A DNA stretch of 60,658 nt, taken from NCBI GenBank assembly GCA_964605225.1, contig CAZSAY010000004.1, positions 1 through 60,658 on the forward strand. The letters are read 5' to 3'. Both the position numbers and the translations under genes were made by a program. A model generated the notes under the pieces. It was given only the letters and a program-made list of their open reading frames with translations. It searched no databases and was not told the origin of the DNA. Positions 26,060 through 52,453 of the stretch are shown here, piece by piece (position 1 is the first letter of the stretch; the number at the start of each line of letters is the position of its first letter). This stretch comes from an uncultured Thermodesulfobacteriota bacterium (GTDB lineage Bacteria; Desulfobacterota; GWC2-55-46; JADFVP01).

Positions 26060-26473
26060 TTACTTTCCCGGCCCCTGCTTCATCTCGATACGGGCCTCGG
26101 CGTAGGCAATGTCGTCTTCTGCGGCCTTAAATACCGGGTCATCGGGCTCAAGGCCCTTCATCTTTTCCGTGGCCTCTGTAATCTCCTGCCTCGCAGTCTC
26201 TACGTCTATCTCCGCCTCTGTCATGGCGTTATCAAGCAGGAGGATGGTCTTTTCAGGGCCAACCTCGGCGTAGCCGCTGCTGATGGCTATGCGGCCCTTT
26301 TTGGAGCCCGCCTTGTAGCTCACCGCCCCGGCCTTCAGGAGGGAGAAAAAATGCATATGCCCGGGAAGTATGCCGAACTCGCCAAGGTCTCCCGGGGCCG
26401 TCAGATCTTCGGCGTCAAGAGAGAGTATCTTTCTTGAGGGCGTTATTATCTCAAGTAAAAAAGTGTTTGCCAT
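26060..26473 (-). CDS. atpC: ATP synthase F1 epsilon subunit
   Basis: LEIITPSR, PGDLGEFGILPGH, ISSGYAEV. Confidence 0.93.
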   Translation of the reverse strand: MANTFLLEIITPSRKILSLDAEDLTAPGDLGEFGILPGHMHFFSLLKAGAVSYKAGSKKGRIAISSGYAEVGPEKTILLLDNAMTEAEIDVETARQEITEATEKMKGLEPDDPVFKAAEDDIAYAEARIEMKQGPGK

Positions 26474-26500
26474 GAGGTCCTGTTAAGTTCGTTATTTTTT

Positions 26501-26521
26501 GGTGGGCAGTGCCCACCCTAC
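26501..26521 (-). repeat. GTAG-type REP element
   Basis: Minus strand GTAG-GGTGGGCA-C-TGCCCACC: GTAG tetranucleotide followed by a perfect palindrome. Confidence 0.7.
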
Positions 26522-26540
26522 ATGTATAGTCCAAGCAACC

Positions 26541-26655
26541 TGTCCCCCACTATCCCCCGTCTTTAATACGCCCCCGTACTCCCCATACGCCCCCGTACTC
26601 CGTCTTCCCAAACACTTCGCCCCTCATACGCCCCGTCTCTAATACGCCCCGTCCT
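26541..26655 (-). repeat. G-tract short repeats (ACGGGG(G)CGTAT x4) between atpD and atpC
   Basis: Plus-strand ATACGCCCC(C)GT at 26566, 26585, 26626, 26642. Confidence 0.85.
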
Positions 26656-29005
<2,350 letters not shown>

Positions 29006-29092
29006 GCGCTGATATTAAACCCCTTGAATTGATCCTGCTTTAAGTCTCTTGCCTGTTGAATCGAAGGCGCTCTTCGTCTCTTATTTGGCCCC

Positions 29093-30610: not shown

Positions 30611-30642
30611 ATTATCCCACCCCTTGAAGAATTTGCCGTTAT

Positions 30643-30880
30643 AACCTTTCTTACTTTCTTTTGGAAAAAAGTAAAGTAAGACAAAGAAAACCAATAGGGA
30701 ATTAACACTGTTGCTATAAAACCTGCTTCCAACGCCCCGCTAAGCCTAAAGTTCGGAAAAAAGAAAGCAAGGCAAAGAAAACCAATAGGGAATTACCCGT
30801 ACTGCTATTGAATTTACTTCCTGCGCCCCTCCAAACTAAGTACAAAAAAAGAAAGCAAGATAAAAAAACAATATTACCCT
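30643..30880 (-). repeat. Three degenerate tandem copies of the dispersed repeat in the atpH-atpA spacer
   Basis: CAAAGAAAACCAATAGGGAATTA at 30682 and 30773, weaker copy at ~30861; hairpin variant CTTACTTTCTTTT-GGAA-AAAAG(T)AAAGTAAG at 30650-30680. Confidence 0.8.
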
Positions 30881-30945
30881 CTTAACCGTCTCGGCCTGCC
30901 CTTAATTATGCCCCCCTTGAATCATAGCTCCCCGATAAAGCCCGG

Positions 30946-31488
30946 TCAGGCACCCGTCATCCTGGTTTTGAGGAGTTCTAATTGGGTCCTGATGCTACCG
31001 TCTATTACGGTGTTGTCCATCTTTATTACAAGCCCTCCGATAAGGGAAGGATCTGTTGCGGAGGTGAGCACCACCTCTTTACCTGTAATCTCACTTAGTC
31101 TTGACTTTATCTCTGATACTACCTCGCCAGAGAGCTCTTTCGGGGCCTCTATTGTAGCCCTCACCCTTCCGGAGAGCTCATCGTCGAGCTTTGCGTAGGC
31201 CGACTCTATCTCCGTTATAAGGCGGATATGCCTTGTCTCTATAAGGATGACCATGAATTTTTCAACGGCAGTGCTGACCTCAAGCGCAACGGAGACCTTA
31301 TTCATAAGGTCTATCCTCTCATCGAGGCTGTACATAGGGTTCAGGAGGGTGCCGGCAAGCTGGCCGTTGGCACGGAATACGGCCGCGATTTGTTTAAGGT
31401 CAGAGCCAAATCTCTCTGCCTCTCCGCCGGGTCTGCCTACATCCATGAGGGACTTGGCCAGTTTTTTAGCTACGCCAGTGTTTTTCAT
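30946..31488 (-). CDS. atpH: ATP synthase F1 delta subunit
   Basis: Position in operon; VRATIEAP, DPSLIGGLVIKMDNTVIDGSIRTQL. Confidence 0.9.
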   Translation of the reverse strand: MKNTGVAKKLAKSLMDVGRPGGEAERFGSDLKQIAAVFRANGQLAGTLLNPMYSLDERIDLMNKVSVALEVSTAVEKFMVILIETRHIRLITEIESAYAKLDDELSGRVRATIEAPKELSGEVVSEIKSRLSEITGKEVVLTSATDPSLIGGLVIKMDNTVIDGSIRTQLELLKTRMTGA

Positions 31489-31586
31489 GTTTTTAAGGAG
31501 GTTAGACCTCTTTTATCCCCAAAATGCCTGATTTAATTGTTGCTATAAAAGCGTGTTCCTAGCCCAATTTTCCGCCTGCATCTATT

Positions 31587-31649
31587 CCCCATTGGCCGCC
31601 CCCTACCCCCGACTGCCCCCATTGGCCACCCAGTACCCCCTACTGCCCC
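31587..31649 (-). repeat. Two 30-bp G-rich tandem units in the atpF-atpH spacer
   Basis: Plus-strand CCCCATTGGCC at 31587 and 31617; the mRNA strand has seven runs of 3-5 G. Confidence 0.8.
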
Positions 31650-31686
31650 TTTTTTTGCAAATATCCCTTCTTACGCCCACTGCTTT

Positions 31687-32658
31687 TTAATTCAGCCGCA
31701 GGTTCGAGATGTAATTTTTAATTAGCCTCTGCTGGTCTTCGGGTTTGAGTTCCTCGGCGAGTAACTCTTTTGCCATCTGTACGGCAAGCTCGGCGACTTC
31801 GGCGCGTATCTCTATGCGCGCCTTTTTTATTTCCTGCCCGGCCGTGAGCTTTGCCTGCTCTTTTAGCCTTATACCGGCTTGCTCGGCCTCGCTTATAATA
31901 CGCCTTTTTTCCGCCTCGCCCTCAAGCCGGAGCTCTTCGGCTATGGAGGCGAGCCTTGACTCGAGGGTGTTAACGAGTTCCCTGTACTGCAAGGCCGCTT
32001 TTTCCGCCTCTTCTTTTACGCGCGTCGCCTCACTCATGGCCTCTTTTATATCGGCCTGCCTCTTGTCAAGGGCTACGGCGATGACCTTTTTCCAGACAAA
32101 ATATACGGCCACGATGAGGATTATAAAGTTGAGTATCTTCCAGATGCCGAGGATGTGCCCGCCTTCTTCGGCGTGCTCCGCGGCCCTTGATAAAAGGGGA
32201 AGCGAGGTAAGAATCCCGGCGATAAGGGCGATGGCCAGTTTTCGCTCAATAAGCCTCCCGGCTATATCCCTTGAGATGGACCTTGTCTCTACGTTAAGTT
32301 TTTTGATGGCCGAGTCTTTCTCGACGGCTATTTTTTCGCGCATTGAGGTTAATTCGGCAGAGACCTCCTTGCCTGAGGCCTCAAGAAGTTTTTTTTCTTC
32401 CTTGAGGGCTTCTTCTTTTAATTTGGCCCGTACCTCGCCGCCCTTTACCCGCGCTTCAAGCAGTTTTTTCTCATAGGTCACACGGCCCTCTGCAACCTCT
32501 TTCTCTATATCTTCCGCGGCCTTCAAGGTCCCCGTGGTCAGACGGTCCCTCTCTTCCATGACCTTTAAAAGGGGCTTGAAGAGTAGCTTGTCGAGGATGA
32601 TGAGGAGAACGAAAAAACCGATAATCTGATATAGGATGGTAAGGTCCAGCGATAACAT
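31687..32658 (-). CDS. atpF: ATP synthase F0 b'-b fusion (two tandem b-type domains)
   Basis: First half MLSLDLT...LLFKPLLKVMEERD (b'); hydrophobic linker; AAEHAEEGGH...WKILNF...LDKRQADIK (b); no stop codon in 323 codons. Confidence 0.85.
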   Translation of the reverse strand: MLSLDLTILYQIIGFFVLLIILDKLLFKPLLKVMEERDRLTTGTLKAAEDIEKEVAEGRVTYEKKLLEARVKGGEVRAKLKEEALKEEKKLLEASGKEVSAELTSMREKIAVEKDSAIKKLNVETRSISRDIAGRLIERKLAIALIAGILTSLPLLSRAAEHAEEGGHILGIWKILNFIILIVAVYFVWKKVIAVALDKRQADIKEAMSEATRVKEEAEKAALQYRELVNTLESRLASIAEELRLEGEAEKRRIISEAEQAGIRLKEQAKLTAGQEIKKARIEIRAEVAELAVQMAKELLAEELKPEDQQRLIKNYISNLRLN

Positions 32659-34680: not shown

Positions 34681-35544
34681 ATGAGAGTTTTTTTTGTCGC
34701 CCTTTTTGCATTGACACTTGTCATTATCCCTGAAGGCATTGTTTTCAGCGGGGCCTATGAGGGTGACTATAGTGTTGGTTCAGCGGCAAATGGCATAGGG
34801 TTCTCAAGGCATAATCTCGGCAAATACGGCGGCCGGACGCGCAAAGAGAAGAACTTCGAGATGTGCGTTTTTTGCCACACTCCCCATAGTCCCGCCGATA
34901 CGCCCGGCCCTCTCTGGGGCGGCCAGGACCCTGCCGTAACGAGCTTTACGGCCTACGGTACGGGTTTGAAGGGCGTGAAATCCATTAATACGGGGTTGGG
35001 CTCGCCGTCACTTGCCTGCCTCAGTTGTCATGACGGCTCAACGGCCTTTGACAACCTTGCAAACTCACCGGGAAAAAAGAAAAAAGCTCGAATGTCGACA
35101 CCGGCTAAGTGGGGTTTCAACTTTACCGAAAGTTCGATGAACCCCGCTCTTGTAAGCACCCGGCTTTTGCTCGGCCCGGTCCTTACCAACGACCATCCCG
35201 TCAATGTCCTTTTCAGGGGCGGTCAATATGCCTCACTGAGGCAAAAAAATACCATAATCAGCCAGATAAACCTGAGCGCGGGCCTTTATGATACCATGTA
35301 TGGCCGCATAATCCCCAACCTCTGGTCCATTAAGGGTTTTATCTCGGACACGGCTACCATAGGCGACCTTCTGAGAGACGGGAGGATAGAGTGTTCGAGT
35401 TGCCACGACCCCCATTTTAATAACAAGAGCTGGTCAGAGACGGCCAGCAGGTTCATAAACTGGAATGATATGGACGGGCTTTTTCTGAGGCGTATCGGCG
35501 GAAATTTCGCATCGGGAGTATGCCGGACCTGTCACGGAAAATAG
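34681..35544 (+). CDS. OmcE-like tetraheme c-type cytochrome (paralog 1)
   Basis: Signal peptide; four CxxCH (CVFCH, CLSCH, CSSCH, CRTCH) plus conserved His in RHNL, HTPH, NDHP, HDPH. Confidence 0.85.
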   Translation: MRVFFVALFALTLVIIPEGIVFSGAYEGDYSVGSAANGIGFSRHNLGKYGGRTRKEKNFEMCVFCHTPHSPADTPGPLWGGQDPAVTSFTAYGTGLKGVKSINTGLGSPSLACLSCHDGSTAFDNLANSPGKKKKARMSTPAKWGFNFTESSMNPALVSTRLLLGPVLTNDHPVNVLFRGGQYASLRQKNTIISQINLSAGLYDTMYGRIIPNLWSIKGFISDTATIGDLLRDGRIECSSCHDPHFNNKSWSETASRFINWNDMDGLFLRRIGGNFASGVCRTCHGK

Positions 35545-36510: not shown

Positions 36511-37140
36511 TTGAGAGTGATTGTGAAAGGTAAGATTTTAAGTCTACTTATCCTCACCGTGGCCTCGGCCCTGCTCCTCTCCGGGTGCCGTCAAAAGACC
36601 AGGGATCTTCTTAATATTGACGCCGGCACGAAGAAGGCGGAAAAAGAGAAGGCCGGCGGACATATGACGGATTATTACGACAAGTTCTTCCGGAGCGTGG
36701 TGCAGAGGGCCTCTATACGCTCCTCGCCAGAGGATCTGCCCGCGTTGAGAGACCTTCCAAAAGACACGGAGGGCCGCGTGAACTGGACGGCATCTGTTAT
36801 GGGGGGCTTTATAAACCCCCGCGGAGTACTCGACCCAAAGGACAAGGAAAAGCCTCCCCTTGACCTTAATATCTTTATAGAGGCCAAGGTTCCCCTCATG
36901 GCCAATGTCATCTTTCCTCATTCCATTCACACGTACTGGCTGAAATGCAGTAACTGCCACCCGAAGATTTTTCTGGCCGAGGCCGGGGCCAACCCTATTA
37001 CAATGAACGAGATATGGCAGGGCAAATGGTGCGGAAGGTGCCACGGCAAGGTCGCCTTTGATTTTTGGCCCAGGGCGAATTGCCTGAGATGTCATATGAT
37101 TTTAAAGGGCCGCTCTCTTGAGAAGGAGCAGTGGAAGTAA
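36511..37140 (+). CDS. c7-type triheme cytochrome lipoprotein
   Basis: Lipobox LSGC; VIFPHSIH, CSNCH, CGRCHGKVAF, CLRCH. Confidence 0.85.
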   Translation: MRVIVKGKILSLLILTVASALLLSGCRQKTRDLLNIDAGTKKAEKEKAGGHMTDYYDKFFRSVVQRASIRSSPEDLPALRDLPKDTEGRVNWTASVMGGFINPRGVLDPKDKEKPPLDLNIFIEAKVPLMANVIFPHSIHTYWLKCSNCHPKIFLAEAGANPITMNEIWQGKWCGRCHGKVAFDFWPRANCLRCHMILKGRSLEKEQWK

Positions 37141-37401: not shown

Positions 37402-38442
37402 ATGCTGAAGATACTTAAAGGCCTCTTAATCATAGCCGTCCCTTTACTCGTTATCAGTTGCACTCCGCCAAAGGTGCCGGACATTGTATGGCCGGGCCCT
37501 CCGGACCCGCCGCGGGTAAAATACGTCAGATCCTTTCACAGCGCCACAGACCTCAAGGGCTTCTCCGTTGTGGGTACCCTTGTGCTTGGCGCGGACACGT
37601 CTTTTACCATGAGAAAGCCGAACAGCATAACCGTGGATAAGGATGGCAGGATCCTGGTTTCTGATACGGCCCATGCGGATATCTTCATATATGACCTTAA
37701 AAAGAAGAAGGTCTCGTCTGTGAGCTCATCGGGGACTCGCATATTTTCCAAGCCCATAGGGGTGGCAACCGATGATTCGGGCAGGATATTTGTCTCTGAT
37801 ACAAGGACAGACCAGGTTGCCGTACTTGACAATAGAGGCCGGCTCATGAAATATCTCGCTCCCGGCACCCCCTTCAAGCAGCCCACGGGCATGGCCGTGG
37901 ATAAGAAACTGGGCAGGCTCTATGTAGTGGATACCCACCTTCACAACGTGCAGTCTTTTGATCTTAAGACCTTGAAGTATTTAAAGACCTTCGGCGAGAG
38001 GGGCAAGGAGGAGGGGAGCTTCAACTTCCCTTCAAATATCGCTGTTGACGCAAAAAGCAACATTTACGTAGTGGACACCATGAACGCCAGGGTGCAGGTC
38101 TTTGACAGCCTGGGCAGGTTTCTTTACAGCTACGGCCGTTTCGGAGATTCCCCCGGCGAGTTCGCGCGGCCAAAGGGAGTCGCCATAGACAGCGAGGGGC
38201 ATGTGTATGTAGTAGACGCGGCCTTTAATAACGTGCAGATATTCGATGACGAGGGCAAGATCCTCATGTCCTTTGGCAGCTACGGCAACGGCAGGGGGCA
38301 GATGATACTGCCCGTGGGCATAGCCATTGATCAGGATGACTTTATATATGTAACTGATTCATGGAACGAGCGCGTGGATGTCTATGAGTTTCTTGGAAAA
38401 AAACACGCCGAGAGAGAGGCCGCCGGCAAGACAGAGAAGTAA
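37402..38442 (+). CDS. NHL-repeat beta-propeller lipoprotein
   Basis: Lipobox-like VISC; six repeats of F..P.G.AVD..G..YV.D..N.RVQVF. Confidence 0.9.
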   Translation: MLKILKGLLIIAVPLLVISCTPPKVPDIVWPGPPDPPRVKYVRSFHSATDLKGFSVVGTLVLGADTSFTMRKPNSITVDKDGRILVSDTAHADIFIYDLKKKKVSSVSSSGTRIFSKPIGVATDDSGRIFVSDTRTDQVAVLDNRGRLMKYLAPGTPFKQPTGMAVDKKLGRLYVVDTHLHNVQSFDLKTLKYLKTFGERGKEEGSFNFPSNIAVDAKSNIYVVDTMNARVQVFDSLGRFLYSYGRFGDSPGEFARPKGVAIDSEGHVYVVDAAFNNVQIFDDEGKILMSFGSYGNGRGQMILPVGIAIDQDDFIYVTDSWNERVDVYEFLGKKHAEREAAGKTEK

Positions 38443-38489: not shown

Positions 38490-38517
38490 TTGACAGAGAT
38501 TAATTTTTCGGTATAAT
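38490..38517 (+). promoter_or_regulatory. Consensus sigma70 promoter for the OmcE-like gene
   Basis: Perfect TTGACA (38490) - 16 nt - TATAAT (38512). Confidence 0.75.
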
Positions 38518-38679
38518 AACAGTTAATATAGGTTCATGGGCTCATGGCGGGCCTCATAGAAGCCAAAGGCGATGGACGCCTCGATACTGCCGTTGACATG
38601 AGGCGCGGCAGGTTCGGAGGTTTTTCTGCGTAAAAATCTCCTCAACAAAGTTAAAGAAAAACAGAAAAGGAGCTATCAA

Positions 38680-39687
38680 ATGAAAAGATTTTTAGCCATC
38701 GCCATAGCGGCAACCATGGGCCTCTTTTACGTAGGCCACGCCAACGCCGCCTCTACCTTCCAGGCCGGCGCCACAGGCACCAGCGGAAAATCAGTTGGTG
38801 GACCTCTTGACACCTACACGGCAGGTATGGCCGCCAACGGCGTCGTGCAGTCCAGGCATAACCTTGGCGCCTTCAGTCATCACCTTGGCACCAGGAATGA
38901 CAACACAGCCGGCACCGTAACAGGCACGACGCAGATATGTGTGTTCTGTCATACGCCTCACCATTCCAACACCGAGACCATGCCTCTGTGGAACAGGAAT
39001 ATGCCGAACTCCTCAAGCTATATCGGTTACGGCACGACCAAGGCCGGCACCGCTATAAGCCAGCCGCAGCAGGGTTCCGTATCACTTGCCTGTCTCTCCT
39101 GTCATGATGGTGTAACCACCTTTGACAACCTTGTCAACGCGCCAGGTAAGGGCCTTGCCATGGTAGGCGTCGGTGGCGGCGCCCCCGACCAGTTCTCAAG
39201 CTGGACCTTCTATGATGACGGTACCGCTCTTATCGCCAACAAGACCCTGAGCTTTTCCGCGAGGGTAAATCTCGGCACAGACCTCACCAATGACCATCCG
39301 GTGAACGTGGATTACAGTGGCGGCAAAAAGGCCTCCCTGAGGCCGAGGGGCACAGACATCGCCACCATCAACCTCTCTGCCGGTCTTAACCAGACCACGT
39401 CATACTTTGACTATATGAAGTCCAACCTCTGGGCTGTATCCGGTTTCATCAGCAGTACCGCTACAATCGGAGACCTCCTCAGGGCTGACAGCACAACAGC
39501 TGGAGCAAAGAACAAGGTTGAGTGCGCCAGTTGCCATGACCCACACTTCAGCAACGGTAGCTATCCTGAGTACACCAGGGATTCGAACAACAAATTCACC
39601 GGCCTTAACGCAGGTGATGGCGTATTCCTGAGAAGAGTGGGCGGTAACATGGGTTCCGGCGTTTGCAGAACCTGCCACAACAAGTAA
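38680..39687 (+). CDS. omcE: OmcE-like tetraheme c-type cytochrome (paralog 2, probable major subunit)
   Basis: AAGGAG RBS, signal peptide; SRHNL, TQICVFCHTPH, PLWNR, SLACLSCHDG, NLGTDLTNDHPVN, VECASCHDPH, FLRR, CRTCHNK follow the motif order I recall for Geobacter OmcE; orthology not verified. Confidence 0.85.
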   Translation: MKRFLAIAIAATMGLFYVGHANAASTFQAGATGTSGKSVGGPLDTYTAGMAANGVVQSRHNLGAFSHHLGTRNDNTAGTVTGTTQICVFCHTPHHSNTETMPLWNRNMPNSSSYIGYGTTKAGTAISQPQQGSVSLACLSCHDGVTTFDNLVNAPGKGLAMVGVGGGAPDQFSSWTFYDDGTALIANKTLSFSARVNLGTDLTNDHPVNVDYSGGKKASLRPRGTDIATINLSAGLNQTTSYFDYMKSNLWAVSGFISSTATIGDLLRADSTTAGAKNKVECASCHDPHFSNGSYPEYTRDSNNKFTGLNAGDGVFLRRVGGNMGSGVCRTCHNK

Positions 39688-39706: not shown

Positions 39707-39744
39707 AAAAAAAAGAGGGCCGATTCGCGGCCCTCTTTTTTTTT
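39707..39744 (+). terminator. Strong intrinsic terminator after the OmcE-like gene
   Basis: AAAAAAGAGGGCCG-ATTCG-CGGCCCTCTTTTTTTTT. Confidence 0.85.
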
Positions 39745-39895: not shown

Positions 39896-39924
39896 TTAAC
39901 AATAATAAAATAATCTTGTATAAT
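39896..39924 (+). promoter_or_regulatory. Sigma70-like promoter for the PPIase-cytochrome-FGE genes
   Basis: TTAACA - 17 nt - TATAAT in an AT-rich spacer. Confidence 0.55.
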
Positions 39925-39982: not shown

Positions 39983-41014
39983 ATGACAATGTCTTTTAAG
40001 AGGCCCGTCCTCTTTGCCGGGGTCGTCCTTATGGCGCTATTTATCGGTAACCCGGTCTTTTCCGCGGAGACCAGTCCTGATGAATTGCCGCTTATTCGTT
40101 CAATTAAAGACCCTGTAGCTCGAGTAAACGGTAAGGAGATAACAGAGGAAACCCTCCGTATAGCCGTAAACAACGTAATGCCGATGAAGAGCTTTCATAC
40201 AACTGTCTCTGACAGGCGCTTCCGCGCCATAAGAAAAGAGGCCCTTGAGAGGCTTATCAACAACAGGCTCGCCTACGACCTCGCTGTATCGAGGAAGGAG
40301 GATAAGATTACAACAAAAGAGTTTGAAGAGGGCATCAAGGTACTGAAAAAGAGGCTCCGCAGTGGTGATACCCTTGATGATGTCCTTAAGCGGAGCCATA
40401 TGACCAGGAAAGACCTCAAAGAGGACATGAAGTTCAATATTGTAGTGGCCCGGGTCCGCAGGAATGCGGAGGAGAGTCTGAAAAAAAAATCCGAGGACCT
40501 TGTCACCGAAAAGTACATGCGGCATTACTACGATACCCATCTTGATAAGTTCAAAGTGCCGGCTCAACTTCATCTGAGGGGGATTCTCATTAAAGTGGGC
40601 CCGTCCGAGAGCCAGAGGTTATGGAACAAGGCAAGAAAGAAGTTGCACGATATATCCGCAGAGGCCAGGAAAGGGGGGGATTTCGCCGCCCTTGCAAAAA
40701 AATACTCTCAGGCCGCAAGCGCCGCAAATGGCGGGGATATGGGTTGGGCACATGAGGGTAGCCTTTTACCTGACATAGAACGTACCGTGTCCGCTCTGAA
40801 AGTCGGCGAGATATCCAGGCCGGTTATGAGCATATACGGTTTTCATATATTTAAACTTGAGGGTAAGAGGCCCGCGACACAGAAAAAGTTCTCCAAACTT
40901 AACTTAAAGCGCCTGAAGTCTGAGCTTGTAGCCAAAGACTACAAGGGCCGCCTGGATGCCTGGCTAAAGAATCTTCGTAAGGGCGCAAAGGTAGAGTATC
41001 TTAGAAAAATCTAA
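39983..41014 (+). CDS. SurA/PpiC-type peptidyl-prolyl isomerase chaperone
   Basis: Signal peptide, VARVNGKEIT SurA-N-like domain, parvulin motifs GGDFAALAKKYS, GGDMGW, SIYGFHIFK. Confidence 0.9.
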   Translation: MTMSFKRPVLFAGVVLMALFIGNPVFSAETSPDELPLIRSIKDPVARVNGKEITEETLRIAVNNVMPMKSFHTTVSDRRFRAIRKEALERLINNRLAYDLAVSRKEDKITTKEFEEGIKVLKKRLRSGDTLDDVLKRSHMTRKDLKEDMKFNIVVARVRRNAEESLKKKSEDLVTEKYMRHYYDTHLDKFKVPAQLHLRGILIKVGPSESQRLWNKARKKLHDISAEARKGGDFAALAKKYSQAASAANGGDMGWAHEGSLLPDIERTVSALKVGEISRPVMSIYGFHIFKLEGKRPATQKKFSKLNLKRLKSELVAKDYKGRLDAWLKNLRKGAKVEYLRKI

Positions 41015-41025
41015 GTACGATAAAG

Positions 41026-41568
41026 GTGGTCATGAGATGTGATTTAAAGGATAGATCATGGTCTGTGCGTACCATTAAGGGCCAGGGGGTTGTACTGAGC
41101 CTGGGTATGCTTTTGTCTTTAGGGCTTTTTTCCCCACCCCATTTCGTGTTTGGCGCGGGGCAGGCCGTTACAGAGGCGAAGGACGCGCTTACGGGCAGGC
41201 GCGGCGACCCCGTGGCCGGTAAGCTAATCTACGAAAGATACTGTCATTACTGCCATGGCAGACAGGGTTACGGAGACGGCCCCGTAGGCACGGCCATTAC
41301 GCCTCATCCCGCGGATTTTGTTCATGATAGCAAGCGTATGAGAAAGTCCGATGAGAAACTCTTCAAATCCATAAGCGAGGGCGTTCAGAGGAAGATAGGC
41401 GGTGAGGCCATGGCCATGCCGCGGTGGGCGAATATCCTTGGCGAAAGAGAAAGGTGGGATGTCCTGGCGTATATCAGGGAGCTTGAGAGAAAGGGCCGCG
41501 CTCGTGAGGGGCTTGGTCCCATTGGAGACAAAGGGGCCTCTGGTCCTGCAAAGAGTACAAAGAGGTGA
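41026..41568 (+). CDS. Monoheme class I c-type cytochrome
   Basis: GKLIYERYCHYCHG..GYGDGP, HPADF, MAMPRWANIL...WDVLAYIR. Confidence 0.88.
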   Translation: MVMRCDLKDRSWSVRTIKGQGVVLSLGMLLSLGLFSPPHFVFGAGQAVTEAKDALTGRRGDPVAGKLIYERYCHYCHGRQGYGDGPVGTAITPHPADFVHDSKRMRKSDEKLFKSISEGVQRKIGGEAMAMPRWANILGERERWDVLAYIRELERKGRAREGLGPIGDKGASGPAKSTKR

Positions 41569-42611
41569 AGTTGCTTAATAGATACCATTTTTTTTTGAGC
41601 GCCCAGATCGTGGCCCTTGGGTTATTGACCGTGACAACTGCCATGGCGCTTCCTCCCGCACCCGATGATTATGACCCCGGCACAGGTGAGCCGCGTTGCA
41701 TAAAATGTCATAACAACGATAAAAAATATTCAATAGATTACTCAAGAGAGCCCTCATGCTTTTCGTGCCACGGCCCCGGTCTCAGTGAGCGGTACATCGC
41801 GGTAAACAAGAAGTATCGCCATAAAGAAGGAGATGAAGACCTTACCGTAGCGGCGGCAGAGGCGCCCCGCAAACCGGGCCTTAAGAAGGCGGCCCTGAAA
41901 AAAACCGTTAGTCCCACGGTTGCAGGAAAAAAGAATATGGTTTTTGTGCCGGCCGGGGCCTTTACCATGGGTTCCAATGACTGGTGGCCCAAGACTCAGC
42001 CCGAGCATAAAAGGTTTGTAAAGGGTTTTTATATCGATAAGTATGAGGTTACTCTCGAACGCTATGCCGCCTTCATCAAGGCTACGGGGCATAGCGCTCC
42101 CCCGAACTGGATCGAAGGCAAAATCCCTCCTGAAAAAGCCGGCCATCCAGTAACGTATGTTAGCTGGTTTGACGCCGATGCCTTTTGCAGATGGGAGGGT
42201 AAGCATCTGCCCTCTGAAGAGCAGTGGGAGAAGGCCGCCAGGGGCACCGACAAGCGTGCCTTTCCATGGGGAGAGAGGTTTTCTCGAAAAAAGGCCAATA
42301 CGCCGCAGTTCGGCTACGGCAATACCATGAAAGTAGGCAGTTTTTCCGAGGGTGTCAGCCCCTATGGCGCCTACGATATGGCGGGGAATGCCTGGGAATG
42401 GGTGGATAACTGGTTTAAGCCATATCCCGGCAACAGGCACCCCGATGAGAACTACGGGGAGAGGTTCAAGGTCCTGCGGGGAGGGTCGTGGTACGACTGC
42501 ACATACTACAAGTGCGGGATAAGCGCCCCGAGTTATAACAGGATATTTTTTAACCCTGAGACAAAAAATAACAACTTCGGGTTCAGATGCGCTACCGAAG
42601 GACAGGGGTAA
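41565..42611 (+). CDS. Diheme cytochrome c fused to an FGE-sulfatase (SUMF1/EgtB/PvdO) domain
   Basis: Signal peptide; CIKCH and CFSCH; then FTMGS, FYIDKYEVT, HPVTYVSW, LPSEEQWEKAARG, YDMAGNAWEW, RGGSWYDCTYYKC, FGFRC. Confidence 0.88.
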   Translation: MKLLNRYHFFLSAQIVALGLLTVTTAMALPPAPDDYDPGTGEPRCIKCHNNDKKYSIDYSREPSCFSCHGPGLSERYIAVNKKYRHKEGDEDLTVAAAEAPRKPGLKKAALKKTVSPTVAGKKNMVFVPAGAFTMGSNDWWPKTQPEHKRFVKGFYIDKYEVTLERYAAFIKATGHSAPPNWIEGKIPPEKAGHPVTYVSWFDADAFCRWEGKHLPSEEQWEKAARGTDKRAFPWGERFSRKKANTPQFGYGNTMKVGSFSEGVSPYGAYDMAGNAWEWVDNWFKPYPGNRHPDENYGERFKVLRGGSWYDCTYYKCGISAPSYNRIFFNPETKNNNFGFRCATEGQG

Positions 42612-42693
42612 GGTCGAATGCCATATAAAGGCGCGGGGCTATGCGCCTTTTGGGCTTCAGGATCTTCAGGCAGATGTTTTTTTAATGTAAGCA

Positions 42694-43527
42694 ATGGAGG
42701 TGGCAGTGTTTAAGGCAGGTTGGGGGGGTGCGATAAAGTATTTTGTCATGGCCCTCTTTCTAATTACGCCCGTGGCGCTTTCCGGGTGCGCGGAAAAAAA
42801 GAAAGACCTCCATGAGAATATGGTCCTTGTGCCGGGGGGCGAATTTATAATGGGTAGCAACAGGGTGGACACCGATGCCAAGGCCATGCAGTATGGATCG
42901 AGAAAACCATGGTTCGCCAATGAGTCGCCGGAGAGAAAGCTCTCTCTTAAGGCCTTTTATATTGATAAGACCGAGGTATCCATGGATGCCTACGGCAAGT
43001 TTGTCTCCGCCACAAACAGAAAACCCCCCGCAAACTGGACCGGCGGGGCGGTACCCGGGGGAAAGGGCAAGTACCCTGTGACCAATGTGAGCTGGTTTGA
43101 CGCCACGGCGTATTGCAAGTGGAAGGGAGGCAGGTTGCCGGGTGAACGGGAGTGGGAAAAGGCCGCCAGGGGCACGGATGGACGCGTCTTTCCCTGGGAA
43201 GGGGATTTTGATATTAAGAAGTTAAACACCCTTGGCGAATATGGAGGGACGACAACGGTGGGCAGGTTTCCCGAAGGTGCAAGCCCTTACGGCGTCCTTG
43301 ATATGGCGGGAAACGTACAGGAGTGGACGGCAGACTGGTATGGCCGGTATCCCGGCAATACCTATGATGACAAGGATTACGGCGAGAGGTTCAAGGTGGT
43401 AAGAGGTGGCGGCTGGGGCGGTATGGGACATTATACCATGCAGGTCTATGTTAGCGCCCCTTTCAGGAGCATAGCCCCGCCAAAGGGCGCTTATAATGAC
43501 GTTGGCTTTAGATGTATCCGAGAATAG
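42694..43527 (+). CDS. FGE-sulfatase-domain lipoprotein lacking the Cys pair
   Basis: Lipobox LSGC; FIMGS, YPVTNVSW, LPGEREWEKAARG, DMAGNVQEW, RGGGWGGMGH, VGFRC; start may be GTG 42706. Confidence 0.88.
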   Translation: MEVAVFKAGWGGAIKYFVMALFLITPVALSGCAEKKKDLHENMVLVPGGEFIMGSNRVDTDAKAMQYGSRKPWFANESPERKLSLKAFYIDKTEVSMDAYGKFVSATNRKPPANWTGGAVPGGKGKYPVTNVSWFDATAYCKWKGGRLPGEREWEKAARGTDGRVFPWEGDFDIKKLNTLGEYGGTTTVGRFPEGASPYGVLDMAGNVQEWTADWYGRYPGNTYDDKDYGERFKVVRGGGWGGMGHYTMQVYVSAPFRSIAPPKGAYNDVGFRCIRE

Positions 43528-43619
43528 GTTCATAGAGCCTCAAGTGGCGTGCGCCTTATCTCCGATTGTTGTTTTAATATCTTTCTAATGTAAATATAGA
43601 GAGAATAAAGATATGTATA

Positions 43620-43636
43620 AGGGCAAGACACTTGCA
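43620..43636 (+). promoter_or_regulatory. Sigma54-like -24/-12 element
   Basis: GGCAAGACACTTGCA: GG-N10-GC spacing, close to TGGCACGRNNNTTGCW, with an AT-rich upstream tract. Confidence 0.5.
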
Positions 43637-43677
43637 CCACTACCCACTTCCTGCATTACATAAAAAGGGTAATCGCT

Positions 43678-45633
43678 ATGAAATTCATTAAGAGGATATG
43701 CCTGGCATTGGGACTGTTGTCGGCTCTCCTCTTTTTGCCGTCCAGTGGATGGTGCGTTGATATAGACCCTTACACCTATCATACCATCATCGGAACGGTC
43801 TTTTTCGAGTACGAGCATGAGACCCGCACGGAGACGGATAGCTCAATAGCAGATAAGACCTCGAATTTCCGGCAGAACTACGGGTTGACGCTTCAGGGCT
43901 TTTTCATGGCAAGGACCCTGGCTATATACGATGGATCTTTTGATTTTGAGAGAGAGAGTACCACTAATAATTCTTCAAAACACACCAGAAATAATTTTTC
44001 CTTTGACGTAAAAACAACTCTACTGCCCTTAAGCCAGATACCTTTAACGCTTTTTGGCAGCCGGTCCTTCGGTTCATCATCTTCCACCGGGGGCTCCGTG
44101 CCTGCCGCTACCACCACCACCGTAGGCCTTGACTGGACGGGTAAATTCAGGGTACTGCCCCTGTTGCGCTTTAGTCTTGTCAGGACAGCATACAGCCTTG
44201 AAGATGACAATAGTCATGATCTTCGCATAGGATTCAGCGCGGATAAGAATTATGGCCCTACGACAAACCGCTTTAATTACGGAGGCACTTTTAGCGGTGG
44301 ATCAAGCGGGTCCACAGGAAGTACCAACACAATAGGTTTTACCAACACTACGCTATTGTCCAGCCATTCCACCTTTAACCTGGGGGTTACAGGCAATAAC
44401 AACAGTACGAACGATATCGACAATGACACCGTCGTAGGGGTTACCATGGGGCTTAACTCATACCCGAGCCGCTTTTTCAGCCAGTCGCACAACTTCTCCT
44501 ACTTCAGGAACACCTCCGATAATACGACTTTTACCGGGACAACTTATGGAGGTAGTCTGCGGTACGATCTTTCAAGGAAGATATCCACCAACCTTTCGCT
44601 CGGCATATCCAAGACCTTTACAGAGACGCCTACGAGCTCGTTGGATCTTACCACTACCAACGCCTCGGGCTCTCTCGCCTATAAGCTTACGGAGCACCTC
44701 TATACCACGCAGGTAGCGAACTTCTCTCTTACGGAGTCCAGCTCTTCGGAACAGAGCACTATCAATCTGAGCGACAGAAAGCTTGTGAGGACCACAAGTA
44801 ACCTTGTTTATAACAGGAGCTTTTCACGCTTCGGCCTAAACGCACAATACGGACTCGGATACCTCTGGGATACGGATATCAATCTTGATTCGCCGGATAA
44901 CGGCGGGCAGGCTATAACCCATAACGGAGGCTTAAGCTTAAACAGGATAGATATCACCAGGTTCTTTTTCTTTGACACAAGTGTTCATTTCAGCGGCGTA
45001 CTGAAGACTACCGCCGGCACGGTTAATGACCAGAGTAGAAGTTTCAGTGCGCATTTTAATAATAGATTCTGGCAAAGATATATTGGTATTAGCGGTGGCT
45101 TTACGAAAAGCAATTCCAAGGAGGCAGTGCAATCCCTTGAGGACAAGAGTGAGGTAACAGAGATCCATATAACATCAAATCCCATTAAAGGCTCAAGTAT
45201 TGCTTTGAGCGCACAGCGCACAGTGTTTTTCAACGACCTCTCCGGGTTTAGCCATACAAACTCAGGGAATTTGTCGGGAAGCTATGGACATGGGTTACTG
45301 GGAGGCGCCTTGACTGGCCATGTTACCTACAGCATATTAGACAGGACATTCTCGGGAGGTTCTGATGTAACGCGAAACACACACTACACACTGGACTACC
45401 AGAGGAGTCTGCTACGGCGTGTGATGTGGAAGTTCAAAGCCAGTAGATTTGAAAGGAGGACAGGGGATGTTTTCACTAACAACACAATATTTGCAAATAC
45501 GGCCTTTTACCGGCTGAGGGCCTGGTCTCTATCCCTGACGCATAGCTACTCCATCACGCAGGAGAGCACAAGGGACGAAAGGGATAACAGGATATTTTTC
45601 AGGATCGGGCGTATATTCGCAAGGTTCTACTGA
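43678..45633 (+). CDS. Large outer-membrane beta-barrel (porin-like)
   Basis: Signal peptide; Ser/Thr/Asn/Gly-rich with alternating hydrophobic/aromatic pattern throughout; aromatic C-terminus (RIFARFY); no TM helices. Confidence 0.7.
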   Translation: MKFIKRICLALGLLSALLFLPSSGWCVDIDPYTYHTIIGTVFFEYEHETRTETDSSIADKTSNFRQNYGLTLQGFFMARTLAIYDGSFDFERESTTNNSSKHTRNNFSFDVKTTLLPLSQIPLTLFGSRSFGSSSSTGGSVPAATTTTVGLDWTGKFRVLPLLRFSLVRTAYSLEDDNSHDLRIGFSADKNYGPTTNRFNYGGTFSGGSSGSTGSTNTIGFTNTTLLSSHSTFNLGVTGNNNSTNDIDNDTVVGVTMGLNSYPSRFFSQSHNFSYFRNTSDNTTFTGTTYGGSLRYDLSRKISTNLSLGISKTFTETPTSSLDLTTTNASGSLAYKLTEHLYTTQVANFSLTESSSSEQSTINLSDRKLVRTTSNLVYNRSFSRFGLNAQYGLGYLWDTDINLDSPDNGGQAITHNGGLSLNRIDITRFFFFDTSVHFSGVLKTTAGTVNDQSRSFSAHFNNRFWQRYIGISGGFTKSNSKEAVQSLEDKSEVTEIHITSNPIKGSSIALSAQRTVFFNDLSGFSHTNSGNLSGSYGHGLLGGALTGHVTYSILDRTFSGGSDVTRNTHYTLDYQRSLLRRVMWKFKASRFERRTGDVFTNNTIFANTAFYRLRAWSLSLTHSYSITQESTRDERDNRIFFRIGRIFARFY

Positions 45634-46433
45634 TGGTGGACGATAGAAACGCTCTTCCATTTATACTTGTATTCGGCCTCCTTATTACTGCCTTTGGCAT
45701 AGCCTCTTTTCATCGCAACCGCATCTGGCTCTCTCCCCTTTCTCTCTGGTCCGACTCGACCCAAAAAAGTCCCGGAAAGGCGAGACCTCATTACAACTAC
45801 GCTGTGACCCTGGCCGGAAGTGGAGACCTTGAGGCCGCGCTCAGGGAGAATCTGCGCGCCCTTGAGATAAATCCGCTACTCGCCAAGGCGTATTTTAACG
45901 TAGGGGCCATATACCAGAATAATGGTGATACTCGTGGGGGCATAAGGCAATACCGGATAGCCCTGGCCTTGCGTCCGGACCTTTCCCTTGCCCACAATAA
46001 TCTCGGTGTTGCCTATCGTACGCTGGGACGCCTTGACGAGGCGAAGAGGGAGTATGACGATGCCATAAGGCTGGATTCGAATTATGCGAGAGCCTACATT
46101 AACAGGGCGGATCTGATGATGGAGCTTGGCTCGCCGGAGATGGCCGCGGCCGATTACCGCAGCGCCATAGCCTCCGGCGGAGGCCACGCAGGGGTATACT
46201 ACAGGCTTGCCATGGCCTTTAACGCCCTTAATCGCCGGGACCGGGCCTTTAACGCCTTATTAATGGCGATAAGGATGGATCCGGGGCTTTCTGAGGGATA
46301 TTATGAGCTGGGACTCATACTGGAAGCAAGGGGAAAGCCTGGAGAGGCCTCAAGGTATTACCGGGAGGCTTTAAGGCTTGACCCGGCGGGAGACAAGGCA
46401 AGGCAAAGGCTGAAGCAATTGTATGGCAGATAA
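45633..46433 (+). CDS. Membrane-anchored TPR protein
   Basis: One N-terminal TM, RNRIW..PLSLWSD..QKSP, ~6 TPRs; ATG overlaps the barrel stop (TGATG). Confidence 0.88.
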   Translation: MVDDRNALPFILVFGLLITAFGIASFHRNRIWLSPLSLWSDSTQKSPGKARPHYNYAVTLAGSGDLEAALRENLRALEINPLLAKAYFNVGAIYQNNGDTRGGIRQYRIALALRPDLSLAHNNLGVAYRTLGRLDEAKREYDDAIRLDSNYARAYINRADLMMELGSPEMAAADYRSAIASGGGHAGVYYRLAMAFNALNRRDRAFNALLMAIRMDPGLSEGYYELGLILEARGKPGEASRYYREALRLDPAGDKARQRLKQLYGR

Positions 46434-49584: not shown

Positions 49585-49732
49585 CGTAAAGCCGCTTGTG
49601 ACGATAGTGGCTTTACTTAACTACATATTATAACTTATCATTATACTTAAATACAAGGATTGTCCGCATTTGTTTTTTAGGTTTTTTAGTATAAACTGTG
49701 CTGAGAGGGGGGGTAATGCCAGTGATTTTCCT

Positions 49733-52453
49733 ATGAGAGTGGAATACGCCAAAGAGCGGATAAAATTTTTTGATAATCTTCCCGGGAATATTGAGGCGAT
49801 ACATAGCGGTGCCCTCTGTTCCATATCCCCTGAGGGTTTAAGGTTTAAGCACGGCCATACCATCGCGGAGCTCAAGGTGCCTTATCATCTTGGTTCTGAC
49901 GATGAGGCTGTGTGCAAGGATGGCGTACTGGGGCTTGCGGCCCTTATCAGAAGCCGCTACGAATCTTTGAAACAAGCGCTTAAGGAAGCGGACTCACCCA
50001 GGGAGGGAGGTATTTATGTTAAGATACCGCAGCTACGAGAAAAAACCTTACGACTTGATATATTCGCCGCTCAATCCTTTGAGAGAGCCCTCGCGGCCAG
50101 AATACTTGAGAATACACCCTATGTTGACAGCGCCGTTCTTTACGCATGGCTCAGTCCCGGCGAGAGCGGCCATGAGTTTGTAAAGTGGCTTAGGGCCATC
50201 TTGAAAAAGGCCCGTAGCGACGAACTGCGCCACGGCCAATCTGAACATACCTCCTACCTGACGCTTCTCGCGCTTATTAAAACCATGCGTAAACATCAGA
50301 AAAACCTCAAGGATTTCCGCATACAAGGTCTTGCCTACGATAAGCTCGATCTCGCGGTAGGACTCACTTTTTTTCACCTCTTCTGCGCTATTATCGAGGA
50401 GCTTACAGGGGGATGGAGCGAGAACGATGGCCTCGGAGTTGTGCTGAGGTCGGCCCTTCTTCCAGAGCATTTTTTAAGCGTAAGATCCGGCATCCTCAAT
50501 ACCTCCCATAATCCCTACGGGCTCTCCATGGATACACTTGAGGCCCTGCGGCCGCTCATGGTTCCCCTTACGGACAATATTGAGTCCATGGGTCTTCTTG
50601 TTACAGAGGGGGTAAAGCGCGTAAGGAACGATAAGGCGGTTTTGAGGGCGGTCATAAGGCAGATAAAGTTAAGGCGCTTCAGGCAAAAGGCCCTTGAGTA
50701 TATGAAGTCATTCGATGTCCCCGATATAGATCTGCGCAAAGAGCTTTCCGAGCTCTATAACGAGGACCGGCTTATCTCCAACCTGATCAAGGATGGGAGA
50801 AAGGCCTCTACCCTTGCGGCCTCTCTTGAGGCGCAGCAAAAGGTAGTTGAAAAAGACCATGACCGCGCCGGCAAGCTCGGGGAAATTCGAGCTATTGTAC
50901 TTGAGCTGAGCAAAAAGAGGTCTCTATTTGGGGGGTTTGCAGGAGGCGGCAAGGAGGAGGAAAACGCCGAGATAGCCTCCGTCTTAGAAGGTTACTATGC
51001 CTTTGTACTTGACGAAATGGTTAAAGAGACCGTTGACCTTATGATGGACATACTTGTAGATAGGCGGCTGAAGCTCTCCAACAAGATGCTTCGTGATGAA
51101 TACCTGAAAGGTCAGATATACCGTTTTTCCACTGATAAGAGGGCCATGATAAAGACCCTTCATTCCAGGGAGGAGGGACAACTCTTTGTGGACATGAAGG
51201 ATTTCACCCGTAAGACGCATAATGTCAAAGAACTGGCCATGGCTGATTTCATGAAGGAATACTTCTTTAAGCCCATACTGGACGCCGCAGGGGGATATAC
51301 CGACGGGGAGGGGTTCAGCGAGGATGAGATGGGGATAAGGCTTACGAATATCCCCGGTGACGCCATTATCTTTTCAGGCGGCATGAGGCGCCTTGTGGCC
51401 CTTGCCCATGATATTCAGAGGATAATAAGCGAGTCGGGCAAGGCCCTGGAGAGAAGGCTACCGCCTGGAAGCGGCAGGGAAGCCCTTGAGGGGGTTCACC
51501 AGAGGTTCGAGGAGCGCAAAGCGGCAATCAGGAAGAAGAGGCTTGAGACGATAACCGGGATAGGGGACGGCAAGGAGGACTCGGCCGAGGCCATCTTGAG
51601 GATAGGCGAGGAAGAGAGCCGTCTTGAGAGAATATATAAAGACGAACTTGCGGCGGCCATCAAGCATGAGATGGAGGCGGGGCTCTTTATAACATATGGC
51701 GCCAGGGCCGAGGTAATAGATCTCGGATTTTCCAGGGGCTACAAGGGGCCTGTTAACGTCTCCATAGGAGAAAAGATAAACGAGGCCTCGCGCGGCACCT
51801 TCCGTCACCCCATGGTCAAGGCCTTTCTGGAGATACTTCTCTCAGGAGAGAGGGAGAGGCGGAGAAACAGGGAGCTCAAATACCCCTTTGATGTGTATAT
51901 CCATACGGCCTATACGCTGAGGATGCCTCCGGAGATCGAGCACGCATTTGAAAAACTCATCTCCGGGCAAAAGCTATCAAACGCCAGGGCCCTTACCAGG
52001 CTTATTACGGAGAACTATCTCAAGGACTTCGAGAAGATAATCGCCGGTGAGTCCTTCTCCGAGTTAAGGCTTATTACATCTATTACGGATATATACAACA
52101 AGGGGCAGGCCCTTAGCGATGAGGCCCTTGGCGCATACATAAAAGAGAGCAGGGGGGAGAAGTCTTTTTTAAGGAAGATAATCTGTAGAGATGATCTGCA
52201 TGAATCCATAAAAGGGGCCTTTTTTCTCCCACAGGAACGGATGGAGTTTATCTATAGCGCAAATCTTGATAAGGCCCCGGTGGAACTCTTTTACCGCGCC
52301 GGGGAGCTCATCTTCCGTGGTTTTGAGGCGGAGCCGCCAAGGGAGGTATACGAGATGCTGAACCCTGAAGGCGAGTTTTTCGCGGCTATCAAAGAGCATC
52401 ACCTCAAGGACTGGATTGAAGAGGCAAGGGAGGCAGGCGAAGAGCCCCTCTGA
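49733..52453 (+). CDS. Large cytoplasmic protein with a class III nucleotidyl-cyclase-like domain
   Basis: LFVDMKDFT, IPGDAII, EAGLFITYG, SIGEKINEASR match the order of class III cyclase motifs; start set at MRVEY. Confidence 0.65.
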   Translation: MRVEYAKERIKFFDNLPGNIEAIHSGALCSISPEGLRFKHGHTIAELKVPYHLGSDDEAVCKDGVLGLAALIRSRYESLKQALKEADSPREGGIYVKIPQLREKTLRLDIFAAQSFERALAARILENTPYVDSAVLYAWLSPGESGHEFVKWLRAILKKARSDELRHGQSEHTSYLTLLALIKTMRKHQKNLKDFRIQGLAYDKLDLAVGLTFFHLFCAIIEELTGGWSENDGLGVVLRSALLPEHFLSVRSGILNTSHNPYGLSMDTLEALRPLMVPLTDNIESMGLLVTEGVKRVRNDKAVLRAVIRQIKLRRFRQKALEYMKSFDVPDIDLRKELSELYNEDRLISNLIKDGRKASTLAASLEAQQKVVEKDHDRAGKLGEIRAIVLELSKKRSLFGGFAGGGKEEENAEIASVLEGYYAFVLDEMVKETVDLMMDILVDRRLKLSNKMLRDEYLKGQIYRFSTDKRAMIKTLHSREEGQLFVDMKDFTRKTHNVKELAMADFMKEYFFKPILDAAGGYTDGEGFSEDEMGIRLTNIPGDAIIFSGGMRRLVALAHDIQRIISESGKALERRLPPGSGREALEGVHQRFEERKAAIRKKRLETITGIGDGKEDSAEAILRIGEEESRLERIYKDELAAAIKHEMEAGLFITYGARAEVIDLGFSRGYKGPVNVSIGEKINEASRGTFRHPMVKAFLEILLSGERERRRNRELKYPFDVYIHTAYTLRMPPEIEHAFEKLISGQKLSNARALTRLITENYLKDFEKIIAGESFSELRLITSITDIYNKGQALSDEALGAYIKESRGEKSFLRKIICRDDLHESIKGAFFLPQERMEFIYSANLDKAPVELFYRAGELIFRGFEAEPPREVYEMLNPEGEFFAAIKEHHLKDWIEEAREAGEEPL

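Follow-up and report, generated by a model that had tools for sequence, protein, structure and literature searches.

What is the function of a protein in which a two-haem cytochrome is joined to the fold of a formylglycine-generating enzyme (FGE), known as a sulfatase maturase? This question is raised by a gene on a 60,658 nt contig from an uncultured Thermodesulfobacteriota bacterium (GenBank assembly GCA_964605225.1, contig CAZSAY010000004.1; this whole stretch is called the window in the following). The original prediction, made from the sequence alone, had described two CxxCH motifs, a Lys/Ala/Pro linker and an FGE domain with RGGSWYD-CTYYKC, all of which are present, and had proposed a self-reducing periplasmic copper oxidase or oxygenase on the cytochrome chain. 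This proposal survived in part: the secreted di-haem/FGE architecture and a coupled mono-haem cytochrome c agree with it, but most of the segment corresponding to the substrate groove is missing and the haems are optional. Our preferred answer, which we hold tentatively, is that the protein (subunit A) is the catalytic subunit of a conserved, uncharacterised two-subunit periplasmic oxidoreductase with the FGE fold and a built-in haem wire. Because the Cys pair of the FGE loop is kept but the substrate groove is absent, subunit A is probably a redox enzyme rather than a sulfatase maturase.

Judged from its sequence, subunit A is a secreted protein whose flexible tether carries two c-type haem sites; attachment of c-type haem requires a periplasmic location. 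Four bases (GTGA) are shared between its GTG start and the TGA stop of the cytochrome c gene that precedes it, while a TTG located two codons further 3′ lies behind a better Shine-Dalgarno sequence and serves as the start in an identical database protein (P0001, 346 amino acids (aa)). We identified 7089 homologues with a maximum E-value of 1e-10. All of the 120 best homologues (53–100% identity) contain two CxxCH motifs, spaced by 20 residues in all but one, and 119 contain the C-x4-C pair. In an alignment of 63 sequences, C45, C48, H49, C65, C68, H69, C208, C312, C317 and C342 are invariant. As they are retained across the homologues, the haem motifs and the C-x4-C pair are not due to chance. 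The haem module itself has a weak Pfam match only (Cytochrom_c3_2, E 0.0075).

The position of the Cys pair was compared with the copper loop of FGE. The structural disulfides of human FGE are C346-C235 and C365-C218, and its active-site pair consists of C336 and C341 (PMC4505483); the copper to which the substrate binds is held by both Cys of the active site (bioRxiv 10.1101/2021.05.21.445229). Solved FGEs share the signature GGS[YF][LM]-C-H-x-S-Y-C-x-R-Y-R-x-A-A-R and read LCHDSYCNRYRVAAR, LCHESYCNRYRVAAR and MCHRSYCYRYRCAAR. With the Cys set apart, the loops are GGSYM-C336-HRSY-C341-YRYR-C346-AAR349 in the human enzyme, GGSYL-C-HDSY-C-NRYRVAAR in S. coelicolor and GGSFL-C-HESY-C-NRYRVAAR in T. 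curvata. The common stretch GGS[YF][LM]-C-H-x-S-Y-C confirms the earlier statement that FGE uses a C-x4-C pair after GGS. The loop of subunit A reads R305-GGSWYD-C312-TYYK-C317-GISAPSYNR326. By alignment, C312-x4-C317 occupies the catalytic loop of FGE with the FGE spacing, in a register that is off by one and between different flanking residues. R326 aligns with human R349, the Arg of the FGE A-A-R motif (MAFFT), and the distance from this Arg to the G-F-R-C motif is exactly 13 residues in all of subunit A, FGE and generic family members, where a Pro stands at +5. From GGS[WY] to the Arg, the loop measures 16 residues in subunit A, where positions 3 and 8 are Cys, 14 in FGE, where Cys occupies positions 2 and 7, and 11 in generic members. 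The presence of an FGE-like copper-site motif, as originally predicted, is therefore upheld for the loop and the C-x4-C spacing but not for the register and the FGE flanks.

HMMER placed C312 and C317 opposite human C341 and C346. We rejected this register, which requires a deletion of 4 residues plus 6 inserted residues compared with two single insertions, breaks the 13-residue match to G-F-R-C, and would put C317 opposite C346, whose partner C235 is Ala in subunit A. Because C317 would have no partner of the C235 type under the HMMER register, C312 and C317 most likely work with each other. The neighbouring gene encodes a second FGE-fold protein (subunit B), whose loop has the same length as that of subunit A and contains no Cys. 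The Cys pair is thus unnecessary for folding, and its invariance in A, together with a B loop of equal length lacking it, makes a purely structural disulfide less likely. Columns conserved in A proteins with or without haem motifs, but not in B, are S308, C312, C317, G318, S320, P322, N325, F328 and F329; they cluster in the Cys loop.

We then considered the fold. Modelled at high confidence by AlphaFold2 (AF2), the C-terminal domain of subunit A has the FGE fold, as had been expected (predicted local distance difference test (pLDDT) 91.7). The model covers residues 115–348 and was built from 104 sequences of three clades; a full-length model from 63 close homologues, with a pLDDT of 63 and values below 50 in the Cys loop, was set aside in its favour. 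In a Foldseek search against the PDB, the query-normalised template modelling scores (TMq) were highest for CalU17 (6VQP, 0.86) and ToxD (7SPQ, 0.85), followed by 0.81–0.83 for Streptomyces, Thermomonospora and human FGE (6MUJ, 6S07, 1Y1E), 0.81 for EgtB and 0.73–0.78 for PvdO. Besides its first three residues, T313–K316, lying between both Cys, is the sole segment of the domain model with a pLDDT below 50. Such low confidence is what the modelling would be expected to give for a loop ordered by a ligand or by the redox state, and it discriminates between none of the readings discussed here.

Subunit B is a nearly constant partner of A, which the original prediction had not noticed. Directly or after one gene, a B-type gene lies 3′ of A for 15 of the 16 distinct A proteins with downstream sequence available (the window and loci L001–L004, L006, L082/83, L084/85, L086, L088, L089, L090, L091 and L092, where L numbers designate loci carrying relatives; the exception is L005). 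A JGI metagenome contig (L088, 9001–13002) even contains a tandem of di-haem A, B, di-haem A and B. None of 120 subunit B homologues has a Cys pair or a haem motif, and the loop equivalent to the Cys loop of A shows an invariant W-G-G-x-G-H-Y (W237, G238, G239, G241, H242, Y243). The sequences suggest that the functional unit is the A/B pair with its two specialised loops, to which the haem module is an accessory. In many relatives (for example L082 10986–12611, L084 10990–12585 and L086 11070–12629), a protein of 520–540 aa with a spermine/spermidine-synthase domain is encoded between A and B; this spermine-synthase-like membrane protein is absent between A and B in the window. An S-A-P-F-R sequence in subunit B was considered as a Ser-type sulfatase motif and set aside, as it is not conserved.

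To delineate the wider clade, we combined a scan of genome contigs with a search seeded with a haem-less relative from Nitrospirota (L004). The contig scan was dominated by the generic D[ML]AGN[VA][WF]EW motif, leaving L002–L007 as informative loci. Clade members, which belong to metagenome-assembled genomes (MAGs) of Thermodesulfobacteriota, Nitrospirota and Gammaproteobacteria, share the signature G-G-S-[WFY]-x-[DHN]-C-[ST]-x-Y-x-C-G-[ILVM]-S-A-P-x-[FY]-N-R. Among the matches listed from the L004-seeded search, all 117 contain C-x4-C; 83 have two CxxCH motifs at variable spacing and 32 have none. The haem-less members retain the Cys pair, from which we conclude that the haems are an optional accessory and not intrinsic to the chemistry. 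Their database names are generic or wrong (‘FGE family’, ‘non-haem iron enzyme’, ‘hercynylcysteine S-oxide synthase’). Within the superfamily, which comprises 147,098 representatives at 50% identity, C-x4-C-G-[IL]-S occurs in just 10 of the 149 nearest cluster representatives; multi-domain proteins with repeated FGE domains dominated this search, which was used for counting the motif only. The Cys pair is thus a marker of the clade, and the earlier statement that most FGE-domain proteins lack it was correct. The residue H148 was dropped as clade-specific because, by inspection, a His is found there in other FGE-domain proteins too, such as the B protein of L004.

How could such a protein work? 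To our knowledge, the physiological electron donor of true FGE is unresolved. FGE requires an external donor of two electrons and two protons (PMC4505483; bioRxiv 10.1101/2021.05.21.445229), and in vitro the electrons come from thiols such as dithiothreitol (PMC4505483). According to the oxidoreductase reading, the Cys pair of subunit A would act as a redox centre. Its likeliest form would be a Cu(I) bis-thiolate like that of FGE, with a redox-active dithiol/disulfide as the alternative. The tethered haems would exchange electrons between this centre and the co-translated mono-haem cytochrome c, replacing the soluble reductant, i.e., the added thiols, that FGE needs in vitro. The substrate would be different from the CxPxR motif of sulfatases. 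In the lineage of the window, the module of cytochrome c, A and B would have been inserted into an operon downstream of the gene of an OmcE-like filament, and this insertion makes it probable that the module locally carries out an oxidation or reduction during the assembly or maintenance of the envelope apparatus. A narrower version appears doubtful to us, namely that A/B is a cytochrome-wired Cu(I)-thiolate enzyme of the FGE type, with haems feeding an O2-activating or oxidising centre that acts on a non-sulfatase periplasmic substrate, here in a step of building or maintaining the OmcE-like filament.

The same Cys pair could function without a metal. Subunit A would then be a cytochrome-linked thiol/disulfide or sulfur redox enzyme, exchanging with periplasmic Cys, for instance the CxxCH of apocytochromes, or with small sulfur compounds. 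In apo-FGE, C336 and C341 become linked as a disulfide, C341 also enters a mixed disulfide with the substrate Cys, and the apo-enzyme catalyses disulfide formation in the substrate (PMC4505483). The periplasmic location, the haem wire and the position of the gene set amid many genes of multihaem cytochromes fit this alternative, and the haem-less members, which keep the pair, could use another redox partner. However, a C-x4-C in a loop is unlike the classical redox-active CxxC on a helix dipole, subunit A contains no thioredoxin-like element, the housekeeping contexts of relatives offer no link to cytochrome maturation, and the only conserved partner found is B. We regard a metal-free enzyme as unlikely, if by no means far-fetched.

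Several observations weigh against a copper-type redox centre in subunit A, or against haems being essential to it. The true-FGE signature around the Cys pair is not matched by the window protein, which reads YDCTYYKCGISAPSYNR; the register of the pair relative to GGS is shifted by one, with an offset of 1–2 columns relative to FGE in the MAFFT alignment; and the FGE flanks (the His after the first Cys, S-Y before the second, and R-Y-R) are missing. Residues 147–200 of human FGE (54 residues between S-T-G-Y-L and H-P-V), which we take from the FGE–peptide literature to form much of the CxPxR groove, face only 13 residues of the query (178–190, HMMER), a net shortening of ~41 residues. A conserved Cys pair in a periplasmic protein could also be just a disulfide. 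For the haem module, we found in the 63-sequence alignment no further invariant His or Met within residues 29–90 that could serve as distal haem ligand, and no column of the FGE domain tracks the presence of haem motifs. About 20 haem-less members are full-length proteins with an N-terminal signal anchor that keep the pair, with gene starts confirmed in L004 and L090. In L007 (7839–8861), a 340-aa protein carries the same di-haem module on a B-type domain without Cys (loop G-S-V-S-G-H-Y); it resembles a recombinant of A and B, which may be real or an assembly chimera. O2 chemistry is also at odds with the probably anaerobic life of many carriers. Finally, genes for copper or haem-copper enzymes are neighbours in only 2 of ~16 A/B contexts (L092 and L006).

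These two contexts touch on a further alternative, in which subunit A handles copper in a NirV-like or Sco-like manner: the pair would bind Cu(I), the haems would keep it reduced, and the copper would be passed on to periplasmic cuproenzymes. In L092 (8001–14062), A/B lies beside genes for a multicopper oxidase, two cytochromes c and a Cu-oxidase-domain protein, an arrangement that recalls the ncgABC-nirK clusters of ammonia oxidisers. In L006 (685–6812), a COX1-like gene (PF00115, E 4.8e-17) and a gene of the UbiA family, whose prenyltransferase product is probably a haem O synthase, lie just 5′ of cytochrome c, A, B and a third FGE-fold lipoprotein. Cys pairs of the FGE type bind Cu(I), according to the titles of 6MUJ, 5SSZ and 6S07, and NirV, which has been linked to nitrite reduction, is a member of PF03781. 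Against copper handling stand the rarity of such contexts, the lack of a cuproenzyme gene among the window open reading frames (ORFs) scanned, and the 230-residue FGE fold with its partner, which is elaborate for a chaperone; we consider it improbable.

The oxidoreductase reading also has to be distinguished from that of a genuine FGE which matures Cys-type sulfatases with the cytochrome as its reductant. Subunit A shares with true FGE (1Y1E, 5SSZ, 6MUJ, 6S07) the fold (profile E 7e-40), the structural disulfide C218-C365, kept as C208/C342, the GGS serine, the A-W-E-W tryptophan and the Y-E-V-T glutamate, and a C-x4-C in the same loop; its database name is ‘formylglycine-generating enzyme family protein’. 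Unlike true FGE, it has an N-terminal di-haem module and an FGE-fold partner, and there is no sulfatase in its context. A search for sulfatases (PF00884) among the window ORFs scanned gave none, and the cluster proteins of the window contain no C-x-P-x-R motif. The partner B and the conserved contexts have no relation to sulfatases, and, as described above, the signature round the Cys pair is absent and the match to human 147–200 is largely deleted. Together with family models that score far below their cut-offs (see below), this leaves hardly any room for a sulfatase-maturing role. The OmcE-like subunit, moreover, has no Cys beyond those of its four CxxCH motifs.

No matched FGE-fold model of NCBIfam reaches its cut-off with subunit A, which holds for the equivalog models of EgtB, SenA, GldK and PvdO. 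A functional precedent is PvdO (PDB 5HHA, matched at E 3e-19; dihydropyoverdine dehydrogenase in NCBIfam), like A a periplasmic FGE-fold protein, to which an oxidoreductase function on a substrate other than sulfatases is ascribed. With NF051459, A scores 53.2 bits against a cut-off of 500, and it lacks a pyoverdine context. EgtB, OvoA and SenA are non-haem iron enzymes of the cytoplasm. They have the C-terminal FGE-like domain in common with A (TIGR03440 E 9e-33) but possess a DinB-type N-terminal domain that A lacks; with A, the EgtB and SenA models give 113.9 versus 360 bits (TIGR03440) and 107.7 versus 420 bits (NF041186), and only the C-terminal half of the model is matched. CalU17 and ToxD are cytoplasmic. 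Unlike A, these two best structural matches are proteins of natural-product pathways with poorly defined roles, whose PDB entries (6VQP, 7SPQ) name no cytochrome module.

The features of subunit A and of the surrounding cluster are compiled in Table 1.

Table 1 Features of subunit A, subunit B and the surrounding gene cluster in the window.
Feature	Coordinates	Strand	Basis
Subunit A: di-haem cytochrome c + Cys-pair FGE-fold domain	41565..42611	+	348 aa ORF; PF03781 E 3.3e-54
Sec signal peptide, residues ~1–28, cleavage after AMA (AMA/LPP)	41565..41648	+	translation
Haem motif 1, C45-I-K-C-H49	41697..41711	+	C45, C48, H49 invariant
Haem motif 2, C65-F-S-C-H69	41757..41771	+	C65, C68, H69 invariant
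Lys/Ala/Pro-rich flexible linker, residues ~86–122	41820..41930	+	sequence; pLDDT <50 at 85–118; length varies among homologues
FGE-sulfatase fold domain, residues 123–343	41931..42593	+	Pfam PF03781; AF2 pLDDT 91.7, predicted template modelling score (pTM) 0.90
C208 and C342	42186..42188 and 42588..42590	+	align with human FGE disulfide C218-C365; both invariant
Loop S308...R326 with C312 (42498–42500) and C317 (42513–42515)	42486..42542	+	same loop as FGE C336/C341 (MAFFT)
Subunit B: FGE-fold lipoprotein without Cys pair	42694..43527	+	PF03781 E 7.6e-51; lipobox LSGC; 277 aa
c7-type trihaem cytochrome	36511..37140	+	TIGR04257 nanowire_3heme E 1.1e-18; PF14522
NHL beta-propeller lipoprotein	37402..38442	+	PF01436 E 6.4e-36; single Cys, residue 20
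OmcE-like tetrahaem filament subunit	38680..39687	+	phmmer vs 7TFS (OmcE filament) E 2.6e-19, vs 9YUQ E 1.2e-13
SurA/PpiC-type peptidyl-prolyl isomerase, first operon gene	39983..41014	+	PF00639 E 2.6e-23; SurA_N
Mono-haem class I cytochrome c (CHYCH), translationally coupled to A	41026..41568	+	PF13442, PF00034
651-aa secreted protein, probably outer-membrane beta-barrel	43678..45633	+	signal peptide; C-terminal aromatic residue
Tetratricopeptide repeat (TPR) protein, last operon gene	45633..46433	+	TPR Pfam families; overlaps barrel-gene stop

In the window and its close relatives, the gene order is fixed: c7 cytochrome, NHL propeller, OmcE-like subunit, PpiC, cytochrome c, A, B, the ~650-aa protein and the TPR protein. 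A mono-haem cytochrome c gene takes the same position in L001, L082–L087 and L006. The 651-aa protein has no match in Pfam or NCBIfam, and genes of 645–686 aa are syntenic with it in L001 and L082–L086. The OmcE-like gene is preceded by a perfect sigma-70 promoter (TTGACA-16-TATAAT, 38490–38517) and followed by a terminator with a 16-bp stem (39707–39743), as expected for a highly expressed filament subunit. A promoter-like site with 11 of 12 matches lies 5′ of the operon that extends from PpiC to TPR (39896–39924).

Known OmcE clusters resemble the window in having an OmcE homologue, a c7 cytochrome, an NHL propeller lipoprotein, a prolyl isomerase and a large putative barrel. The clusters described in Desulfuromonadia contain cytochromes, propellers and a large beta-barrel, with no FGE genes described (bioRxiv 10.1101/2025.10.22.684050). 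In the accessible literature, we found nothing that links cytochrome filaments or Osc proteins with FGE or sulfatase proteins. The reported lengths of the Geobacter osc (omcS-companion) proteins, for which a channel is proposed, are 701 aa (OscE), 169 aa (OscF) and 367 aa (OscG). These lengths are unlike those of A and B, which are therefore probably not osc orthologues.

The arrangement next to a filament gene invites a structural explanation, according to which A and B are a PorK/GldK-like scaffold that joins the barrel and the TPR protein in exporting or anchoring the OmcE-like filament, with the Cys pair as a structural disulfide and the haems relaying electrons to the filament base. An operon of PpiC, cytochrome c, A, B, barrel and TPR that adjoins an OmcE homologue in conserved synteny is consistent with this, the long flexible tether fits an electron relay, and FGE folds are non-enzymatic in PorK (9MZU matched, E 1.4e-18) and in Tsi3 immunity proteins. 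Moreover, B is a lipoprotein, and PorK/GldK and GldJ of the type IX secretion ring are likewise encoded with outer-membrane export components as FGE-fold lipoproteins. On the other hand, the GldK model TIGR03525 gives only 72.5 bits with A and 72.9 bits with B at a cut-off of 350, and no type IX secretion genes are present. In Nitrospirota and Gammaproteobacteria, A/B occurs in housekeeping contexts without barrel, TPR or filament gene and thus also without an envelope machine. Both subunits carry invariant specialised loops at the catalytic position, the B loop shows that a disulfide is not required there, and neither the Desulfuromonadia OmcE clusters, described without FGE genes, nor the sizes of OscE and OscF provide counterparts. 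A scaffold is accordingly an unlikely explanation, although it deserves serious consideration. What remains of the probability we assign to something else.

Outside the filament cluster, A/B is found between serS and rho (L004, L090) and after tilS or murJ (L088, L089), in addition to the copper-related neighbourhoods mentioned above. The occurrence in unrelated neighbourhoods suggests that the module of cytochrome c, A and B is mobile and was here recruited into a filament operon.

According to the accessible literature and database names, the di-haem fusion, the second FGE fold, the loop signature and the placement in a filament operon are new, whereas the FGE fold and the idea of a copper site at the Cys pair were already known. 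A natural and widely conserved fusion of a Cys-pair FGE-like domain with a di-haem module, coupled in translation to a further cytochrome c, points to periplasmic feeding of electrons into such a centre, and subunit A is a tractable protein for testing the electron supply to it. Since A is constantly paired with a second specialised FGE fold, the two make up a new two-subunit system. The family is large, has members in at least three phyla and has so far come only from MAGs. Its presence in an OmcE-like operon makes A/B a candidate redox or maturation factor in the biogenesis of cytochrome nanowires, for which isomerases, propellers and barrels are the factors known so far. If the Cu(I)-thiolate version were true, A/B would have no precedent either among FGE-fold copper enzymes, in having a defined physiological source of electrons, or among nanowire clusters, in contributing an enzymatic accessory factor of such a type.

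Some additional observations concern the filament gene and its surroundings. In DNA run X1, the OmcE-like gene has a word depth of 100–221, compared with ~30 for neighbouring genes, and one contig skips 126 bases (38552–38677) in its leader, which suggests several strains or paralogues. Upstream of the cluster, a second cytochrome with four CxxCH motifs is encoded (34681–35544, 287 aa), with a comparable 344-aa cytochrome at this place in L001. Possible identities of this second cytochrome are a filament-subunit paralogue, a cap or an adaptor. On the other side, 3′ of a divergent HEAT-repeat gene, lies a gene for a 927-aa protein without Pfam match (49670–52453), syntenic with genes for 903–938 aa in L082 and L083, which may belong to the filament apparatus.

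Further away, positions 72–11125 encode a DUF3463 radical-SAM protein (HpnH-like), LytB/IspH, an NAD-dependent epimerase, two more radical-SAM proteins, one of them B12-binding, and an MMPL transporter (HpnN-like), a probable hopanoid-associated set. An F-type ATP synthase operon (epsilon, beta, gamma, alpha, delta, b) is located on the minus strand at 26060–32658. The region from 40000 to 44000, which includes A and B, was nearly complete in two microbial mat metagenome runs, with 0.89 and 0.64 of the sampled words recovered.

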